A DNA stretch of 64,000 nt from an uncultured Ignavibacteria bacterium (lineage in GTDB: Bacteria > Bacteroidota > Ignavibacteria > UBA10030 > UBA6906), in contig CAVPBI010000001.1 in the NCBI GenBank assembly GCA_963701735.1, forward strand, positions 7,729 through 71,728, in the 5' to 3' direction. The notes below the pieces were generated by a model that made no database searches, was not told the origin of the DNA, and saw nothing but the letters and a program-made list of their open reading frames with translations. Of this stretch, positions 28,874 to 37,278 are shown in pieces. Position numbers and translations under genes: made by a program. Position 1 is the first letter of the stretch. Every line of letters begins with the position of its first letter.

Positions 28874-29018
28874 AAGCGCACGTCCATACGACTTCCCGCC
28901 TGGTCGACGGGAACAGCCGTGGCCGGATCCTGGTCACCCTCCACAGAGTGAGGGGGAGAGCAGGTCTTCTTCTGACGCTGCAGTGTCGAACACGCCACTG
29001 GAAGAACCCGAGGAAACA

Positions 29019-30884
29019 ATGAGAACACGCTCCGTCCACCTTGCACCCGGGATACTTGCTGCCCTCCTCCTCACGGTGGCCCCGGGAGTCGCATTGTCCC
29101 AATACACGGTGCGGTCGCCCTATCTTATGGACCCGACGCTCGCGATCGGATACGTCGACAGTTGCGCCACATTCTGGGAAAAGGCCTACGATTCACTGAA
29201 CGGCGGATTCTTCACGAACATCGGCCGGTCGGGAAACGTGAAGACCCCATACGACAAGTATCTCCTGAGCCAGACGAGAAATGCCTACGGTTTCGTGCGG
29301 GCGTTCATGCTGACCGGTCAGGAGCGGTATCTCACGATGGCCCGGCGGGCGCTCGACTTCATGTACCGGCACCACTGGGACACCACACGTGGCGGCTGGA
29401 TCACGATGGTCGACCGGTTCGGTGGCCAGACAAGCGCCGGCTGGCAGAAGACGGCGTTCGACCAGCACTATGCTCTGCTGGGACCTTCTGCCTATGTCGA
29501 GGCCACCCAGGACACGCTCGACTGGGCGTGGCTGAACGATGGCTACGAAAGCAACGAGACACACCTCTGGGATTCCGGCCCGACCTCCGAGGGGTACTTT
29601 GACAACGCCAGTGCCGACTGGTCCGTCCGTACCGGGAAGAGCTTCAATGCCACAGTGGATGCCGTGACCACCCACCTGCTCACCATGTATCTGATGACGC
29701 AGGATGCGCTGTATGCGACGCGGCTGAAACAAATGGCCGATCAAATGGTCCAGCGGTTTGCGGGAACGATGGGTCAGCAACGCATCGGTTTCGTAGAGAT
29801 GTTTTCCACCGATTGGAGCTGGAGCAACACTACTGCGAACAACAACACCAGGACGATCATGGGGCATGTGCTCAAGACCGCATGGTGTCTGGGGAGGATT
29901 CATCAGCTGTTTCCTGATCCGCTGTACGTGGCGACGGCCGAATCGCTCATGAATGATGTGCTGGCAAAAGGATACGATCATCATTACGGCGGCCCGTACA
30001 AGGACTATGACCGTGTGACAGGCGAGATGTTCATGTACGGGCAGGACACCGCGAAAGCCTGGTGGCAGATGGAACAGGCGATCACGGCGGGTCTGATGCT
30101 GTACGAGATCACGAAGAAGGAATCCTATCTTGCGGCGGCCGATGCGACCGTCGATTTCTTCATGCGGTACTTCGTCGATCACGTCTATGGCGACGTGTAC
30201 TCTGACCGTTTCCGGAATGGCGCCGCCATTACGGCATGGGGGAACGACAAGGGCAATGCGTACAAGGCTGGCTATCACTCGATTGAGCTGGGGTATTATC
30301 TCTACCTGTATGGCAATCTCTTCGTCAGGGGCCTGCCGGTTACACTCTACTACCGGTTTCAGGCGCTCGACGAGGAACGCGAGATCAGGTTGAACCCCCT
30401 TGCGTACTCCTCGCCGAAGTACAGGATCCAGCACGTGCTTGCCGACGGCACGGAGTACACGGAGTTCGATGCCGCGAACCGCACCCTCCACCTGCCTCCC
30501 GGAACAGGAGGGCTATTCGCGGTGAGATACGAGCCGGTGCTGACCGGGACAGGTTCACTGGCAGATGGTGCCCCGCAGTCAATCAGGCTGCTGCAGAATT
30601 TTCCCAATCCCTTCAATCCGGCCACGACAATCCGGTATGCGCTGCCAGAAGCGGCAGTGGTGAGGCTGGCGGTATTCAACGCTGTTGGTCAGCGTGTGGC
30701 AGATCTGGTGGATGAGACACAGGCGGCAGGGTACCACGAAGTGCGGTTTGACGGGTCCTCGCTCTCGTCGGGAGTGTACTTCTACAGGTTGCAGGTCCGC
30801 CCTCTGGAGTCCGCCATCGGGCGTGACTCCAGGAGCGAAGCGGGTGATTTTGTGCAGACAAAGAGGCTTCTGCTTTTGAAATAG
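29019..30884 (+). CDS. AGE-family epimerase/isomerase-like protein (N-acylglucosamine/cellobiose 2-epimerase fold) with signal peptide and T9SS CTD
   Basis: DSLNGGFF, QTRNAYGF, GHVLKTAW, WWQMEQA, KAGYH motifs; QNFPNPFNPAT CTD. Confidence 0.8.
   Translation: MRTRSVHLAPGILAALLLTVAPGVALSQYTVRSPYLMDPTLAIGYVDSCATFWEKAYDSLNGGFFTNIGRSGNVKTPYDKYLLSQTRNAYGFVRAFMLTGQERYLTMARRALDFMYRHHWDTTRGGWITMVDRFGGQTSAGWQKTAFDQHYALLGPSAYVEATQDTLDWAWLNDGYESNETHLWDSGPTSEGYFDNASADWSVRTGKSFNATVDAVTTHLLTMYLMTQDALYATRLKQMADQMVQRFAGTMGQQRIGFVEMFSTDWSWSNTTANNNTRTIMGHVLKTAWCLGRIHQLFPDPLYVATAESLMNDVLAKGYDHHYGGPYKDYDRVTGEMFMYGQDTAKAWWQMEQAITAGLMLYEITKKESYLAAADATVDFFMRYFVDHVYGDVYSDRFRNGAAITAWGNDKGNAYKAGYHSIELGYYLYLYGNLFVRGLPVTLYYRFQALDEEREIRLNPLAYSSPKYRIQHVLADGTEYTEFDAANRTLHLPPGTGGLFAVRYEPVLTGTGSLADGAPQSIRLLQNFPNPFNPATTIRYALPEAAVVRLAVFNAVGQRVADLVDETQAAGYHEVRFDGSSLSSGVYFYRLQVRPLESAIGRDSRSEAGDFVQTKRLLLLK
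30795..30839 (+). repeat. 45-bp in-frame palindromic element in the T9SS CTD (VRPLESAIGRDSRSE)
   Basis: Absent from the closely similar CTD at 35409-35654; contains ctggagtc-cgcc-atcg-ggcg-t-gactccag. Confidence 0.85.
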
Positions 30885-30934
30885 TATCACCTGATACCAG
30901 GTGTCGGTGGGTTTATAGTTTACGATCTCGTCTC

Positions 30935-31741
30935 TCAGGAGTCAAGCGGTACCAGGTCGAGGTACTGCTTGACGACTGAGGGAGCGAGACGGATGATACG
31001 GGAGATGACCTCGGGATCATCGAATTTGGTTGATAAGAGCCTGACGGATTCGAAGTCACGGATGTAGCGCTCCACGGCTTCTCTGGAGTGGTTGGTTTTC
31101 GTGCAAATGGTTGGTGTGAGATAGCCCTTGAGGTGAAGGGCAATGATCACACGTTTGTGCGTCTGGCCGCCGCCAATAAGCTGGATGTTGCCGCGAGTAG
31201 GGAGGGATCGGTTGTACAGATTCTGGTACTCGCGGACGCAGACTCCAACGGTGACGGTGGTGCTCGCCAGGAGAACGGCGAGATCAAGCTGAGAGAGCAG
31301 CGCCCCCTGGTCGTAGGCTTGGTGTGTCCAGCGCTCGATCTTCTTCATCTTGAGTTCGTGAGCGCCTACAGGGGTTTTCAGGCCTTCAATATCGTCGTCG
31401 GTGATCATGTCGAGGACCACCGGCTTGAGTCTGGTCTGGGCCATGGATTTGCCCTTCTTGGGGTACTCGTCGACTGGGACAGCATGCCAGACGATCTGTC
31501 CCTGCTTCAGGAACGAATTGTCCTTGTAGCGGTAGTACTGCTCGATGAGGGCGAGCAAATCATCGATGATGGCGGAGGCAGTGACAGCGCCCTTATCGTA
31601 GCCGTAATGGTTCAGGAAGCGGTCTAGGACGATGTGCTTCAGAGATTTGCCCTTCATGCGCTTGTACTCACGAAAGGCGTCGGCAGCAGGCGAATGATCG
31701 CGGGTGTCCCTGGGGATGAAGCGTAAGTTCTTTGCAATCAT
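30935..31741 (-). CDS. DUF1670-like HTH protein (element ORF B)
   Basis: AYDQGALLSQLDLA, LPTRG..IGGGQTHK, HSREAVERY; ATGA overlap with ORF A. Confidence 0.85.
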   Translation of the reverse strand: MIAKNLRFIPRDTRDHSPAADAFREYKRMKGKSLKHIVLDRFLNHYGYDKGAVTASAIIDDLLALIEQYYRYKDNSFLKQGQIVWHAVPVDEYPKKGKSMAQTRLKPVVLDMITDDDIEGLKTPVGAHELKMKKIERWTHQAYDQGALLSQLDLAVLLASTTVTVGVCVREYQNLYNRSLPTRGNIQLIGGGQTHKRVIIALHLKGYLTPTICTKTNHSREAVERYIRDFESVRLLSTKFDDPEVISRIIRLAPSVVKQYLDLVPLDS

Positions 31742-32520
31742 AGCGTTCGGCGCCCCCTTTTTTTAGGGGTCTGGAGGATCCGCTTGAGCTCTCGGCTTGT
31801 TGCGTGTGCCTTGAGGAGCTTGAGGTACTCATTGATCAGGCGGACGGAGAAGCCAGTGGAAATGCGGATTTGGTGGACGGAGAAGCCCTTCTTGTGGAGT
31901 AAGGCGACACGGGCGAAGTCCTGGATGTAGCGTTTGATGGCGGTCTCGGAATGCTTTGTGCGCCGCTCGATCTCGGAGAACTGGTAGCCGGAGAGATAGA
32001 GCTCAAGGATCTGAGTCTTGTGGGTCTGTCCGCGACCCATCTCGTGACGCCAGCCTCGCGAGGGGAGGATGATCCCCTTTTTGCGCATCGAGCTCATGTC
32101 GCGCTTGATGGTGACGACACTGCACGTGAGGATGAAGGCAATATCCTCATAGGACAGGACGCCGCCTTGATCGATGGCTTCGTTGGTGATGCGGACGATC
32201 TTGTGCTGCCTGAGACCATGGAGCCCGGACTTGTTGTAGACCGGGAGGTCTTCCTCAGGGTTGTGCAGCGTTAGCTTGACGGAGACCTTCTTGCAGAGAG
32301 CAATAGGCTTGCCAGCGGGCTCGTTCTCGTCGACGGCCAGATACTGACACTGACCCGAGCCGAGCTGAACCTCGGCATGCTGGAGGAAGTAGTCGCTGAT
32401 CTGAGAGAAGTACGCTTCAGCCAGGATCGGGGTGAGGTTGAAATCTCTGGCGATGCTCGAGATGATCGACTGCCGAACAGACTTCGACTGAAGTCGAGCG
32501 GTGAGCGGTTGATCCAACAT
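31738..32520 (-). CDS. DUF1670-like HTH protein (element ORF A)
   Basis: EAIDQGGVLSYEDIA, TIKRD, LPSRG..MGRGQTHK, HSETAIKRY; RBS ggagg. Confidence 0.85.
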   Translation of the reverse strand: MLDQPLTARLQSKSVRQSIISSIARDFNLTPILAEAYFSQISDYFLQHAEVQLGSGQCQYLAVDENEPAGKPIALCKKVSVKLTLHNPEEDLPVYNKSGLHGLRQHKIVRITNEAIDQGGVLSYEDIAFILTCSVVTIKRDMSSMRKKGIILPSRGWRHEMGRGQTHKTQILELYLSGYQFSEIERRTKHSETAIKRYIQDFARVALLHKKGFSVHQIRISTGFSVRLINEYLKLLKAHATSRELKRILQTPKKRGRRTL

Positions 32521-32600
32521 ATGATACCTCCGGCAAAGAGATAGTGAAAGTAACCACTTTTTGCCTAGGTATCAGGTGATACTAACCTAAAGTAGGACCG

Positions 32601-32741
32601 ATGGAGGCGGCGAAAGGGGGTAAGGATTTCGGAGTGACGGACTTCTTTCTCTGTCCTGTGTGCGGCTATATCGAGTTCCTGAAAGCACCTGACAAATGCC
32701 CGGTGTGCGGCATCCCGGGCACCAAATTTACGAAGGGCTGA
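32601..32741 (+). pseudogene. 5'-truncated rubrerythrin remnant (C-terminal rubredoxin-like domain only)
   Basis: MEAAKGGKDFGVTDFFLCPVCGYIEFLKAPDKCPVCGIPGTKFTKG*: two CxxCG motifs; di-iron domain missing; too short for the ORF track. Confidence 0.8.
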
Positions 32742-32856
32742 CGTTCGGGTCTTCGCTGGCACTGGAAGCCACACGCTCCGGGCTTTGATCCCGGGCGAGG
32801 AGAGTTGTCTTCTGCACGCCGCGGGTCGGCTGCGGCCCCAATACGACCGGGTCATC

Positions 32857-33438
32857 ATGAACTTACCGAACAAACCGTCACGCGAATCACGTGTTTGCCC
32901 ATGGTGGGTCATTCACACCTTCGACAATCCCGTCCGTCGGCTATTCCAGAATCCGGACAAGCTCCTTCAGGGGCTCATCCAACCCGGTGACACGTGTCTT
33001 GATGTGGGATGTGGGTACGGATACTTCACAATCCCCATGGCCAGGCTTGCAGGTTCCTCCGGAGCGGTAGTCGCTGCCGACCTCCAGCCAGAGATGCTTG
33101 CCGGAGTGAAGCGGCGTGCAGAGAGTTCCGGGATGTTGGCGCGAATTCGACTCCACCAGGTAGATTCTACCGGCCTTCAATTCCAGAAGACCTTCCATTT
33201 TGTCCTGGCGTTTTGGATGGTACACGAGGTACCCGACCAGGAGGAACTGTTGAGGCAGATTCGATTGTCACTTACGCCCGCAGGTCGTTTCCTGATGGTG
33301 GAGCCGATAGGACATGTCTCGCGAGCAGCATTCACTCGAACAGTCGGCGTCGCGCTACAGGCAGGGTTCACGCGAGTTGCTGAACCGCGCATTTCGTTCA
33401 GCCGGGCCGTACTCCTGACCACCGGAGGGATTGCGTAA
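32857..33438 (+). CDS. Class I SAM-dependent methyltransferase
   Basis: LDVGCGYGYF motif I, ADLQPEML, FWMVHEVPD. Confidence 0.88.
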   Translation: MNLPNKPSRESRVCPWWVIHTFDNPVRRLFQNPDKLLQGLIQPGDTCLDVGCGYGYFTIPMARLAGSSGAVVAADLQPEMLAGVKRRAESSGMLARIRLHQVDSTGLQFQKTFHFVLAFWMVHEVPDQEELLRQIRLSLTPAGRFLMVEPIGHVSRAAFTRTVGVALQAGFTRVAEPRISFSRAVLLTTGGIA

Positions 33439-33594
33439 GCACCGACTTCTGACAGGATCACGCTTTGGCTGCTGTCAGTGGTGCGGTACAAGGGTTTTCT
33501 GGCGAAGCTTGACTCTTGCTATTGGGCACCAATATGGTCTCCATAGTGCAGCATGGTTGCGCAGCTCCCGGGTCTGTTAGATAGAGATAATGTG

Positions 33595-33777
33595 ATGGCA
33601 CCACCGGAGTACATAAAGATCCTAAAGCTCGACAAGCTCGCCATGAAGTCGAAGACAAAGCTGGAGTTCCTCGAAGCCGCAAAATCACGCCTGCAATATG
33701 CAAAAAACCTTGGGGTGGAGGAGAGCTTCGAGTTCTTTGTCGAGCAAGCCTGGCTGATCTTCGGCACCGGTAAGTGA
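33595..33777 (+). CDS. Small hypothetical protein (about 60 aa, helical, Lys/Glu-rich)
   Basis: Protein-like composition (MAPPEYIKILKLDKLAM...) in an otherwise empty interval; start uncertain. Confidence 0.5.
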   Translation: MAPPEYIKILKLDKLAMKSKTKLEFLEAAKSRLQYAKNLGVEESFEFFVEQAWLIFGTGK

Positions 33778-34136
33778 TCAACAGGCAGGAAACTGACTGG
33801 TCTCCATTTCCCCCCTTGTTTGTCCCGCCTTTCACGCCTCGCCGGATCATTTCTTCTATGTAATTGATGGTGCGACAGTCCAGCCCCCGTTCACTTCACA
33901 GTGGTTCTCCTGCAACCGGTGAGCTGAGGCACCGGTCCTTCCGCTTGAGATGGCTCCTTGCGCACATGGGTGAAGAAATTGCACAGATGGGTGATAGTCC
34001 GCGTACTGGAGTCCCCTCATATTGCCTGAAAGGGCCGAATTCTGTAGATCGGTCCGTTCCTTCGTTCTGGCAGCAGATTTGCAACAGTCTGACGCTGTCA
34101 TCCATCCGGATGATCATCACCATCAGCGAGGGCCAC

Positions 34137-35654
34137 ATGCGTCTCTGGACCATAGTTCTGTTCCTCCTGGTAGCCTCCGTGGCTTCCGGGCAGGTAGGCG
34201 TCATCAGCACAAATCCGGCTCACAACTCGACCAGCGTTCCCCTTGAGGCAACGATCAGCGTGACATTCAGCGGAGAAGTCGATACGACCCTTTCATTCGC
34301 CCAGGGTGAAAACTACTTCACCAACGTTACCACGCTCCTGGGCCAATGGTGGAGCGCCGACCGCCGGACGATTTCCTTCTCGGTCGTCCTCGAGCCTTCG
34401 ACCGTCTATTTTCTCCTGATCCACAGCGCGAAACCGGTTGCCGGCGGCGGGTTCCCCGTTCCGTACTGTTTCTACTGGACCACAGCGGCAACGTTTCCGA
34501 CGGATCTCCACTCTGTGAGCGGAACGATCTTCAGCGGAGGCAGCCCGGTGACACCCGATAATGCGATTGTCGGACTGGGAGCAACCCCGTTTTCCGGCAG
34601 CGACCCTGCCTTTGTCGGGGTGGCAGTGACCAATGCCCTGGGACAGTTCACCATCCCGTACGTTGCTGACGGGACGTGGTATCCCATTGCCGCGAAAGAC
34701 GCCGACCTGAATGGCATGATCGACCCGGGTGCGGGCGACCCGCTTGCTTTCGGCGACAGTGTGACGGTGAGCGGAGCTGACGTCACCGGATTCAACATGC
34801 AGTTCTTCACATATGAGCCGGTCCGCTTCGCCGCGGCACGCGATTCCATTTCTGCAAAGGCATCGGACCTCCTTCCTCCAAACCATGAACTCCGCCAGTT
34901 CTACGGATGGCAGGTTGATTCCACCGGCGCCGCAAAGGAGTTCGACGGGATCTACACTGTCCCTGGAAGCGAGTTCCTCACTGAGATATGGATAGAGGCG
35001 TTCGGGATGCAGTACGACACTATGCCAATCTGGAACTATGGGGCCAACTATTCACGTCCCTACACAGGCCTCGCCTCCGCAGCCCTGCTGGATTCGGTCG
35101 TTGCGCGCGCGGAACGGATGGGGGGCAAGGAGTTTCGCAGGCAGGCTCCTCCGGTTGCCGGCAGCTACTTCAACGCCTATGCCCGACTAGGCGCGCTCCA
35201 CAATTCGGAATTTCGATGGATGGTGTCAGATACGAGCCAGGACTACTGGGGACTCCAGTACACATTCCAGGTCCAGGCCACGATGGATAGCAGCTACTCC
35301 GTGGCGTGGAAGATGTTCCTGGCAAGCGCCACGACGGGGGAGATCATCAATGTGACCGGTGTTGAGGAGGAAGGTCCAGCTGCGCTCCCCACATCGTATG
35401 CGCTTGCGCAGAACTTCCCGAACCCGTTCAATCCCGCAACGACGATCCGGTACGCGCTGCCGGAAGCGGCAGTGGTGAGGCTGGTGGTTTTCAACTCCGT
35501 GGGTCAGCGCGTGGCAGATCTGGTGGATGAGGCACAACCGGCAGGGCACCATGAGGTGCGGTTCGACGGATCGACGCTCTCCTCAGGAGTGTACTTCTAC
35601 AGGCTGCAAGCGGCCGATTTTGTGCAGACAAAGAGGCTCATGCTTTTGAAGTAG
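34137..35654 (+). CDS. Secreted protein with N-terminal Ig-like (Big_5) domain and T9SS CTD
   Basis: Signal peptide MRLWTIVLFLL; VISTNPAHNSTSVP..ISVTFS; CTD without the palindromic insert. Confidence 0.8.
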   Translation: MRLWTIVLFLLVASVASGQVGVISTNPAHNSTSVPLEATISVTFSGEVDTTLSFAQGENYFTNVTTLLGQWWSADRRTISFSVVLEPSTVYFLLIHSAKPVAGGGFPVPYCFYWTTAATFPTDLHSVSGTIFSGGSPVTPDNAIVGLGATPFSGSDPAFVGVAVTNALGQFTIPYVADGTWYPIAAKDADLNGMIDPGAGDPLAFGDSVTVSGADVTGFNMQFFTYEPVRFAAARDSISAKASDLLPPNHELRQFYGWQVDSTGAAKEFDGIYTVPGSEFLTEIWIEAFGMQYDTMPIWNYGANYSRPYTGLASAALLDSVVARAERMGGKEFRRQAPPVAGSYFNAYARLGALHNSEFRWMVSDTSQDYWGLQYTFQVQATMDSSYSVAWKMFLASATTGEIINVTGVEEEGPAALPTSYALAQNFPNPFNPATTIRYALPEAAVVRLVVFNSVGQRVADLVDEAQPAGHHEVRFDGSTLSSGVYFYRLQAADFVQTKRLMLLK

Positions 35655-35669
35655 TGTCAGGTGATACCA
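35652..35669. repeat. Solo (empty) copy of the element-end palindrome
   Basis: TAGTGTCA-GG-TGATACCA overlapping the stop codon; 18/20 identical to the site rebuilt by removing the 30882-32584 element. Confidence 0.75.
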
Positions 35670-35701
35670 ACTGATGAAGACCCCTGACGGGGCGATCTCA
35701 G

Positions 35702-35732
35702 GCCCGGGCAGCGATGTCCGGGCTTTTTTTTT
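35702..35732 (+). terminator. Rho-independent terminator
   Basis: gcccgggca-gcga-tgtccgggc followed by T9. Confidence 0.85.
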
Positions 35733-35790
35733 GCTGGGGTAGCCTGTCCGGCCAGCACAATCGGAGCCGAAGGAGCAGGAGGGCCGGGCG

Positions 35791-35819
35791 TTGATTGTTC
35801 CTGCGTATCGCGGTATCTT
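35791..35819 (+). promoter_or_regulatory. sigma70-type promoter for tpl
   Basis: TTGATT-N17-TATCTT. Confidence 0.5.
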
Positions 35820-35844
35820 GTCGTATTCCTTTCTGACATAGTGA

Positions 35845-37278
<1,434 letters not shown>

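Follow-up and report, generated by a model that had tools for sequence, protein, structure and literature searches.

A solo palindrome on the stop codon of a T9SS cargo gene, probably the relic of an insertion-sequence-like DUF1670 element

The window under study, a stretch of 64,000 nucleotides from an uncultured Ignavibacteria bacterium, carries five T9SS genes with a C-terminal sorting domain (CTD). One of them, P0004, bears a palindrome on its TAG stop codon, as the first-pass annotation had reported. The end of the gene at 35654 and the sequence were confirmed, and the assignment of P0004 to T9SS is borne out by a type A sorting domain (Table 1). The open reading frame (ORF) ends ...ttg AAG TAG and is followed by TGTCAGGTGATACCAAC. 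The 14-mer GTGTCAGGTGATAC at 35654-35667, hereafter the third site, has its first G in common with the stop codon. It is a single palindrome with no second one nearby, and lies between the stop codon and the terminator-like hairpin. The true start of P0004 is probably internal (MRLWTIVLFLL...), judging from a signal-peptide-like stretch. P0003 and P0004 match TIGR04183/PF18962 at their extreme C-termini. Apart from these two, the CTD genes of the window (three) have no such palindrome after their stops, as had been stated before.

Table 1. Features of the first locus and of the third site (positions in the window)
Feature	Position	Strand	Remarks
T9SS cargo gene P0003 (first)	28983..30884	+	GlcNAc 2-epimerase-like domain and CTD
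IS-like element, 1711 bp	30879..32589	-	boundaries set within 2 nt by the empty allele
Left-end palindrome GTATCA-CC-TGATAC	30884..30897	no strand	core of an inverted repeat of ~17-20 bp
DUF1670 gene 2, P0001, 268 aa	30935..31741	-	
DUF1670 gene 1, P0002, 260 aa	31738..32520	-	31% identity to P0001
Right-end palindrome GTATCA-GG-TGATAC and 7-nt tail TAACCTA	32569..32589	no strand	tail ends the element
AAGTAG	32590..32595	+	displaced original last codon and stop of P0003
T9SS cargo gene P0004	33864..35654	+	Big_5 Ig-like domain and type A C-terminal sorting domain
Last sense codon AAG (Lys) and stop TAG of P0004	35649..35654	+	TAG at 35652-35654
Solo palindrome GTGTCA-GG-TGATAC (third site)	35654..35667	no strand	1 mismatch from element-end consensus GTATCA-NN-TGATAC
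Proposed old-insertion relic, AAGTAG + TGTCAGGTGATAC + CAACTGA	35649..35674	+	sister-genome ortholog diverged
Intrinsic-terminator-like hairpin and T run of P0004	35700..35735	+	

The two other palindromes of the window belong to the ends of an element resembling an insertion sequence (IS), which is located at the end of P0003, the first locus. Two tandem DUF1670 ORFs are its only gene content. A 17 bp inverted repeat, TAGTATCACCTGATACC, is present at 30882-30898 and 32568-32584. The last codon and stop of P0003, AAATAG (30879-30884), are partly or wholly supplied by the element. Three copies are found in the genome, approximately 99% identical, with a common stretch from AAATAGTATCACC... to ...GATACTAACCTA. 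Terminal inverted repeats, near-identical copies at unrelated loci and the existence of occupied and empty alleles are traits that the element has in common with generic insertion sequences. An Rfam search of positions 30000-36500 gave no match at E<=0.1, and no known RNA, guide RNA included, was recognised in or near the element.

The motif GTRTCASSTGAYAC occurs three times in the window (30884, 32569, 35654) and in none of 100 dinucleotide-preserving shuffles. A scan of the whole genome (4.27 Mb), which the first-pass annotation had proposed as a check, revealed 8 palindrome sites as compared to 0 for the reversed-pattern control; the third site goes far beyond what chance would give. Six of these are the ends of the three element copies and one is the third site. 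The last, GTGTCAGGTGACAC at C10:585530, lies inside an ORF. Like this site, the palindromes with one mismatch at C9:12136, C19:242737, C19:282419, C26:96864 and C26:576995 are away from CTD stops and at chance level, and were discarded. A hybrid made up of the left half of the site at 30884 and the right half of that at 32569 reads TAGTATCAGGTGATACTAAC, and the earlier observation that the third site is identical to this hybrid at 18/20 positions was reproduced.

This likeness, together with the same placement relative to the stop, speaks for the third site as an unoccupied attachment site, that is, for the palindrome as a natural attB-like target at whose centre the element recombines. Removal of the element from the first locus had been expected to leave ttgaaaTAGTATCAGGTGATACTAAC. 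The real empty locus, found in metagenome contigs (one each in two runs from two studies), reads cttttgAAGTAGgacc and has no palindrome. These contigs join 30878 to 32590, skipping 1711 bases (cttttg|AAGTAGgacc), with 28 and 44 letters on the two sides; occupied and unoccupied forms of the locus thus coexist. In the sister genome G001 the ortholog of the first locus is unoccupied and reads TTGAAATAAGGAC. The element copy on C4 has an empty counterpart on a variant contig of the same genome (C10:187845), which reads CTCAAATAGTATGGA. For the copy on C32 an occupied/empty pair was sought, and the G001 matches to its two flanks were not collinear. As the palindrome is absent from all three unoccupied forms, both palindromes are the element's own inverted repeats. 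Moreover, many relatives have unrelated central dinucleotides at their two ends (e.g. GG/TT, GA/CC, CC/TT), which makes the centre a spacer and no crossover core, and recombination at the palindrome centre was rejected. In addition, the element carries its 7-nt tail and both palindromes with it into different genera and targets. An attachment site is therefore very improbable, and of the two possibilities offered by the first-pass annotation, unoccupied target or excision scar, the scar is the better one.

Relatives of the element from other genomes define the target. GTATCA-NN-TGATAC is present at both ends in all 19 complete relatives, NN being variable. Members of the family are ~1.71 kb long, with a tandem pair of DUF1670 genes as their only gene content; full-length relatives measure 1708-1774 bp, and the right-end tail of the family consists of 7 nt, (T/A)AAC(C)TA(A/T). 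Their insertion point is the last codon of T9SS CTD ORFs, and of the 18 ORF tails scanned in left flanks, 16 reach the TIGR04183 cut-off. At the left junction a sense codon and TAG are rebuilt in every case (stop TAG in 19/19; last codon and stop AAATAG in 17/19 intact elements). The right junction keeps the original codon and stop in 18/19, as a sense codon followed by TAA (12), TAG (4) or TGA (2). From these junctions the target ATG NTN NTN NTN | AAR TRR was reconstructed. Target duplication amounts to 2 bp at most; the dinucleotide that is duplicated or ambiguous is AA in 17/19 and CG in 1/19. A target-site duplication of 4-5 bp was rejected, since the four-base strings of the two junctions are unlike in 7/19 elements (right junction AAGT in all seven; left AAAT in six and GAAT in one). 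Duplication of TA is ruled out by the empty allele of the first locus. More distant DUF1670 subfamilies have other palindromes (GGACA-AA-TGTCC, TCAnATGA) at the same insertion place. Of the 401 genomes of the class that were sampled, 33 contain the family, a tally which includes the unpublished genome G395; it also occurs in metagenomes of sediment and freshwater that come from 11 studies. The CTD family that serves as target has approximately 144 copies per genome.

Insertion thus takes place into the last sense codon of a type A T9SS CTD ORF, where ATAG, with which the left end begins, completes a Lys or Arg codon and provides a new TAG. Since the left end supplies A and TAG, the C-terminus of the cargo protein stays exactly the same. 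The view of the first-pass annotation, that T9SS cargo genes are targeted at their 3' ends and not disrupted, is supported by the ORF tails and by the rebuilt left junctions.

Solo palindromes at CTD stops are common. Within the family of the host, RTAGTNTCANNTGATAC gave 37 matches in 22 of 61 genomes as compared to a single control match. We examined 26 solo loci and scanned 25 of them; the tail of the upstream ORF matches PF18962 at E<=0.001 in 23/25 and reaches its cut-off of 27 bits in 19/25. A match by chance, or mere paralogy of the 3' flanks without any link to the element, was considered, as the DNA of P0003 and P0004 shows them to be closely related paralogs (86% identical over ~200 nt). 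The recurrence of the same geometry in these 22 genomes and the empty shuffles and genome control argue against it, and the empty first locus, having no palindrome, shows that the similarity of the third site is not inherited flank. The probability of this explanation is negligible.

Some of the solos disclose how they may have arisen. Eight are clean fusions in which the left outer flank is followed by a single palindrome, the right-end tail and the original codon and stop. In two others, the left end is followed by CAGG or CATG and one half of the right end. The joints of both scar types coincide exactly with short direct repeats common to the two ends, TAG(G)TATCA and CAGGTG. Relics fall into size classes: solos of 24-35 nt, a two-ended mini-element of 87 nt (G018:C42) and derivatives of roughly 0.5-0.75 kb. 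One solo of G001 (C4:25420) is an insertion of ~28-31 nt relative to its ortholog in the genome of the window (G000), which reads gtgaaaTAGcagcac. G001 has solos, but a search of this genome for DUF1670 genes at E<=0.001 came back empty; G017 has one solo and no DUF1670 match at E<=1e-10.

The third site behaves likewise. It is a single gene-less end in the target position of the family, and over the 26 positions of 35649-35674 it is identical at 21-22 to clean scars in other genomes, in which left end and right end are fused. In G001 its ortholog reads GTATCAGGCGATAC and begins 16 nt after the stop, as compared to GTGTCAGGTGATAC directly at the stop in G000. Both differ from GTATCAGGTGATAC, at different bases. 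The 60 nt around the site are far more diverged between the two genomes than the flanks (93-96% identical), and a 17-nt indel adjoins the palindrome. In the outgroups G004 and G012 only the downstream gene is shared, the upstream gene being different, and neither an occupied nor a fully empty allele of the third site was seen. Given that solos are common at CTD stops, that clean end fusions exist and that the ortholog has mutated independently, we consider the third site a decaying relic, most likely the solo end of an earlier insertion of the IS-like family now present at the first locus. It may be a left/right fusion or else a bare left end: to the right of the palindrome, CAACTGATGAAG has no clean reading as right-end tail, original codon and stop, a point against the relic.

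Preservation for a function was weighed against decay. The solo might be kept as an operator or 3'-UTR element by which a resident DUF1670 protein, or an RNA hairpin, regulates the cargo gene. It lies in the transcribed stretch between stop and terminator, is one mismatch away from the probable binding site of proteins encoded 3 kb apart, and its orthologous copy persists in G001. Such a domesticated cis-element is nevertheless quite improbable: the orthologs are mutated at different palindrome bases next to the indel, G001 has no detectable DUF1670 gene, and as RNA the region folds only slightly better than shuffles do (z = -2.05), into a structure dominated by the terminator.

For the relic, we propose that an old copy subsequently lost its interior, most likely by deletion between the short direct repeats TAG(G)TATCA shared by the ends. 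This would leave one palindrome on the stop codon, which would have been drifting since. Alternatively, the solos could be footprints of enzymatic excision, a protein-mediated reaction between the palindromic ends that leaves one palindrome and records reversible insertion. The same clean fusion in eight solos from different genomes and the same second structure in two others are reproducible enough to reflect a defined reaction, and the coexistence of both forms of the first locus would fit as well. Joints at TAG(G)TATCA and CAGGTG are, however, what spontaneous microhomology deletion is expected to produce, and the empty first-locus allele is without any footprint, so that excision, if it gave rise to this allele, was precise. 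Neither a circle junction (right end ...TAACCTA joined to left end AAATAGTATCA...) nor any excision joint other than the clean 30878 to 32590 was seen among the contigs, the only material searched. Enzyme-made footprints are thus unlikely, and deletion of the interior is the preferred origin of the relic.

Concerning the proteins of the element, Pfam assigned only DUF1670 and weak helix-turn-helix (HTH) families to P0001 and P0002. P0002 has an HTH_7 match below threshold (17.9 bits; cut-off 23.8). A PDB profile search with a DUF1670 protein found a designed HTH repeat only, Foldseek gave no match at E<=0.001, PHROGs yielded weak HTH matches only, and the ESM Atlas search with P0002 returned only HTH_23-type clusters (best score 0.81, below a meaningful level). 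Aligned as a whole with VIA-align, the protein matched winged-helix and HTH folds only, at a best Z of 6.2; the N-terminal domain by itself reached 4.3. The top structural match was the winged-helix domain of topoisomerase VI-A (Z 6.2; rmsd 2.2 over 62 residues). Values of this order are expected for common folds, and the match was dismissed. No tyrosine or serine recombinase, Y1_Tnp, DDE or DEDD domain was detected by sequence in the element proteins; resolvase gave no match at E<=0.01, and resolvase chains align over the HTH only. Altogether, sequence, profile and structure searches recognised no catalytic domain or fold in DUF1670 proteins. The predicted P0001-P0002 heterodimer scored 0.08 against a mark of 0.32, a value that carries no weight either way on binding. 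H195, H218 and Y226 are invariant and R137, D188 and K196 nearly so (P0001 numbering). The conserved R/H/K/H/Y look tyrosine-recombinase-like, which is a thought only, and are placed within the HTH region.

DUF1670 proteins may consist of three HTH modules and an N-terminal domain, bind the palindromes as dimers and pair the ends, and may perform or direct insertion. Tentatively, we raise the possibility that the tandem DUF1670 proteins are a new site-specific transposase or recombinase, built from HTH modules without a known catalytic fold, which would read the DNA encoding the last five CTD residues and insert in the final codon while the element repairs codon and stop; the solos would then be excision footprints and insertion would be reversible. 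Full-text searches brought up no relevant paper on DUF1670, on PF07900 or on an insertion sequence in combination with T9SS or target-site terms, and the element family seems to be undescribed.

Several known systems resemble parts of this picture. Solo LTRs, IS remnants and MITEs are single terminal repeats or gene-less ends which stay at a former insertion site and decay, as do the ends described here; the present relics differ in lying on the stop codon of a defined gene class with codon and stop rebuilt, and are protein-silent. Tn7 uses TnsD and five Tns proteins in total to insert downstream of one essential single-copy gene, glmS, at attTn7. Both systems read a conserved coding 3' end and insert harmlessly for the gene product. 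The DUF1670 element, in contrast, uses a domain family of ~144 copies, inserts inside the last codon, replaces codon and stop, and has two DUF1670 genes only. TnsA/B/C and a TnsD-type selector are absent from its two ORFs, and the likeness to Tn7 is confined to targeting logic. Phage and island integrases acting at the 3' ends of tRNA and tmRNA genes carry a replacement 3' end. Here, too, the inserted DNA restores the gene end, and the displaced original end is found at the far junction, but only 1-6 nt are rebuilt here, in a protein-coding gene and by an element of IS size, and no tyrosine or serine recombinase domain is detected.

Repeated host sequences are the targets of the REP/BIME-specific IS1397 and ISKpn1 and of IS110-family elements. 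A sequence-specific, safe multi-copy target and little or no duplication are common to them and to the DUF1670 element, whose target is a secretion-signal coding sequence instead of an intergenic repeat and which has clear inverted repeats and, by sequence, no DDE/DEDD domain. IS630/Tc1-mariner elements are similar in short length, terminal inverted repeats, 2-bp duplication and HTH modules, whereas here AA or CG is duplicated and not TA, the two genes are paralogous and DDE is not matched. IS200/IS605 elements lack terminal inverted repeats and have subterminal hairpins and an HUH Y1 transposase; the element has clear inverted repeats and no Y1_Tnp match in Pfam. Serine-recombinase elements (IS607-like) have a resolvase catalytic domain, to which there is no match here.

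Taken alone, the third palindrome is an ordinary, decayed transposon end. If the DUF1670 proteins were the enzyme, a Pfam family of unknown function would acquire a function, and there would be a new example of safe-site targeting in which coding sequence is read. For annotation, the element family accounts for the short palindromic sequences and additional AAR-stop motifs that follow CTD genes in genomes of the Ignavibacteria type. In the genus, three solos were seen that have a GG centre and are preceded by Lys: the third site together with its ortholog in G001, and C4:443878 and C4:25420 of G001. Two of the three share CAAC..ATGAA after the palindrome, which hints at a common origin or at a sub-family not found intact. 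All three read AAGTAG, as compared to AAATAG in 17/19 intact elements, a difference that counts against the relic and for which synonymous drift to the preferred Lys codon is the only explanation offered.

An IS-like element with two DUF1670 genes lies at the end of the T9SS gene P0003, and a solo palindrome resembling its ends, the third site, sits on the stop codon of a second T9SS cargo gene, P0004 (see the table). Both upstream proteins, encoded by the genes ending at 30884 and 35654, carry a T9SS type A C-terminal sorting domain (CTD). The degenerate pattern GTRTCASSTGAYAC has three matches within the window (30884, 32569 and 35654) and none across 100 shuffles of it; across the full assembly of 4.27 Mb there are eight matches, versus none for a reversed-pattern control. 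The palindrome on the stop codon of a CTD gene, pointed out in the first-pass annotation, is thus borne out, and the 18 of 20 identical positions counted there between the third site and a hybrid of the two element ends are correct. The eight genomic matches are the six ends of three element copies, the third site and C10:585530. The last of these, GTGTCAGGTGACAC at C10:585530-585543 of the genome under study (G000), falls within the ORF of another gene with a CTD, at a distance of 1.4 kb from the stop of that gene, and is probably a chance match.

Features of the window at the element and the third site
Feature	Position	Strand	Description
P0001	30935-31741	minus	full-length DUF1670 (PF07900), E 2.6e-57
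P0002	31738-32520	minus	full-length DUF1670 (PF07900), E 5.4e-60
P0004 ORF	33864-35654		3' end ...CTC ATG CTT TTG AAG TAG
14-mer GTGTCAGGTGATAC	35654-35667		first base is the G of the TAG stop codon of P0004
Terminator-like hairpin	35700-35725		third site lies between it and the stop codon

P0001 and P0002, 31% identical to each other, are the two ORFs found between the first two palindromes. The assembly contains three copies of the element, one each on C1 (the window), C32 and C4. Over the stretch running from AAATAGTATCACC... through ...GGTGATACTAACCTA their identity is about 99%, and their flanks are unrelated or far more diverged; the frames of the C4 copy are broken by small indels. Close homologues of P0002 lie mostly on contigs of 1.7-2.3 kb, as expected of a repeat that breaks assemblies. 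Words of the element are present in freshwater and sediment metagenomes, in 20 sequencing runs that belong to 11 studies. Of 401 genomes sampled from the class, 33 contain DUF1670 family matches. Most often two matches lie next to each other, and some are single or fragmentary; this tally counts the unpublished genome G395, of which all other claims are independent. One region of C10 (C10:171423-187848) has 94-96% variants on C4 and C12, which points to heterogeneous strains or to a duplication that collapsed in assembly; the element is in the C4 version only.

In an empty-allele search, public metagenome contigs were aligned to window positions 30300-33200. In two runs, which come from different studies, a single contig each connects 30878 straight with 32590, leaving out 1711 bases; the two sides measure 28 and 44 letters, and 2 letters are ambiguous. 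Being contigs, and short on one side, these are evidence of presence only. The empty form of the first locus in these contigs reads cttttg followed by AAGTAGgaccgatgg. The orthologous gene end in the same-genus sister genome G001, TTGAAATAAGGAC, has neither element nor palindrome, and the empty counterpart of the C4 copy, in C10, is CTCAAATAGTATGGAAG. GTATCA-NN-TGATAC was not found in any of these three empty sites, so the palindromes are the element's own ends, and the first-pass reconstruction of the target as a palindrome was wrong. The element spans window positions 30879-32589, within 2 nt. Behind it, at 32596-32742, a rubrerythrin gene that is whole in G001 retains just its 3' part; G000 lacks about 505 bp, beginning 4-5 nt past the original stop codon. 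Since the flank is truncated in the same way on the metagenome contig with the empty allele, this deletion is independent of the presence of the element.

We tabulated 19 elements with both junctions, relatives from other genomes, 16 of them full-length and three internally deleted (598, 746 and 1544 bp). GTATCA-NN-TGATAC stands at both ends of all 19, with a single mismatch in one, and all share the right-end 7-nt tail (T/A)AAC(C)TA(A/T). The central NN varies, and the dinucleotides of the two ends are often unrelated (CC/GG, AA/TT, GG/TT, GA/CC and others); it resembles a spacer within a dimer-binding site rather than a crossover core. The left junction is invariably a sense codon plus TAG (AAATAG 17, CGATAG 1, GAATAG 1), and the right junction is a sense codon plus stop in 18 of 19 (TAA 12, TAG 4, TGA 2). 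In the junction tetranucleotides, bases 1-2 agree in 18 of 19 and base 3 differs in seven (left A, right G). These junctions and the empty metagenome allele show that the element enters inside or just 5' of the last sense codon and duplicates at most 2 bp; A+TAG is supplied by the element, and the original codon and stop are displaced to its right end. As reconstructed, the target reads ATG NTN NTN NT(G/T) followed by AA(A/G) T(A/G)(A/G), with no downstream conservation, and is thus the DNA encoding the final five sorting-domain residues. In more distant DUF1670 subfamilies the ends are different palindromes (GGACA-AA-TGTCC; TCAnATGA), but the position is the same and the codon and stop are displaced likewise. 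The proposal that the element targets the 3' ends of T9SS genes held, since 16 of 18 scanned left-flank ORF tails reach the TIGR04183 cut-off; the two that fall short are L083, whose ORF has no CTD and ends ...PPLK, and L096, with an ORF of 27 codons that ends ...KMLLLE, and L036 and L098, whose contigs end after 17 and 19 codons, were left out of the scan. With high confidence we regard it as a mobile element targeting CTD ends, for which the 144 CTD gene ends in G000 provide plentiful potential targets.

Palindromes abutting TAG (RTAGTNTCANNTGATAC) have 37 matches in 22 of the 61 genomes of the family, versus one control match. Among 26 loci examined, 25 have a scannable upstream ORF (L109, without one, was left out); this ORF matches PF18962 at E<=0.001 in 23, the misses being L121 and L128, and lies at or above the 27-bit cut-off in 19. 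Eight of the 26 are clean fusions of AAATAG, TATCA-GG-TGATAC, the right-end tail and the original AAR plus stop (two in G004, the others in G430, G446, G017, G451, G440 and, with a CC centre, G447). Two (G001 C1:1260184 and G449 C1) consist of the left end, CAGG/CATG, TGATAC and the tail. Another two are miniatures that keep both ends, their palindromes separated by 53 and 459 nt. Several loci represent the left end of an intact or truncated element, and in nine, including the third site, the right side is unreadable. Both scar types are joined at short direct repeats common to the two ends (TAG(G)TATCA; CAGGTG), the pattern expected of spontaneous deletion. Gene-less or truncated derivatives with both ends kept lie at CTD stops at L117 (G018:C42), L103 (G401:C12), L060 and L100; they comprise a mini-element of 87 nt, which contains a hairpin, and forms close to 0.5, 0.6 and 0.75 kb in length, and could be mobilisable in trans.

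The third site had been read as an unoccupied target or an excision scar. The former does not hold, the empty sites having no palindrome, and the scar reading does: the site is rather likely the decaying solo end of an old insertion. G001 has four solo palindromes of this kind, one of which amounts to 28-31 nt inserted when compared with its G000 ortholog, and a search for DUF1670 genes in G001 found none. The third site matches clean scars at 21-22 of 26 positions and precedes the terminator-like hairpin. Its G001 ortholog, GTATCAGGCGATAC, lies 16 nt past the stop; GTATCAGGTGATAC is mutated at a different base in each genome, and the surrounding 60 nt are far more diverged than the flanks (93-96% identical). 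Against this fit, the bases 3' of the palindrome do not parse as tail, codon and stop, and solos of this genus read AAGTAG, whereas intact elements read AAATAG. The P0004 CTD (35600-35650, compared with L029, G001) lacks a 21-residue stretch, VRPL.SA.GRDS.S.AG, kept in the G001 ortholog, P0003 and the C32 gene, so the P0004 3' end has been remodelled. The terminator-like motif GGCCCGGGCAGCGATGTCCGGGC with its T run (35700-35735) also lies 3' of CTD genes at G000 C10:558487 and C26:619181 and G001 C4:25420; CTD 3' ends and terminators may spread as a module.

Because the DUF1670 pair is the sole cargo of a mobile, target-specific, IS-sized element, we infer with moderate confidence that it is the enzyme moving it. 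In a 76-member family alignment H195, H218 and Y226 are invariant and R137, D188 and K196 nearly so, within the conserved motif LPxRGxxHDxGxxxTHK. The AlphaFold model of P0001 (mean pLDDT 89, pTM 0.70) has a helical N-terminal part with a beta-hairpin, a winged-helix domain (~124-190) and two HTH units (~193-268). Foldseek gave no match to it at E<=0.001, and the matches from VIA-align were confined to winged-helix folds and HTH of the sigma-4/LuxR/resolvase type (best Z 6.2). Modelled by itself, the N-terminal domain reached pLDDT 73 and a best VIA-align Z of 4.3. Longer members join two to four DUF1670 units in a single polypeptide without an added catalytic domain; among them are P0127, P0131, P0135 and P0137 (930-952 aa), P0226, P0242 and P0267 (504-523 aa) and P0222, which has an extra DnaG-type CHC2 zinc finger.

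Taken by itself, the third site is an ordinary relic. Among known systems, the logic of the element probably comes closest to that of Tn7/TnsD at glmS, of integrases restoring a tRNA gene's 3' end and of IS elements targeting repeated host sequences. The element lacks, or does not clearly show, the features that define IS630, IS200/IS605, serine-recombinase elements and Tn7. In the literature reached by a full-text search, no paper on DUF1670 or on elements targeting T9SS genes was found, and against that literature the family looks like a variant of the site-specific IS-like elements that has not yet been described. Close relatives L081, L093, L097 and L100 come from MAGs labelled Chloroflexota, Zixiibacteriota, Acidobacteriota and Calditrichia, reflecting either inter-phylum transfer or binning errors; T9SS CTD flanks were confirmed for L081, L097 and L100.
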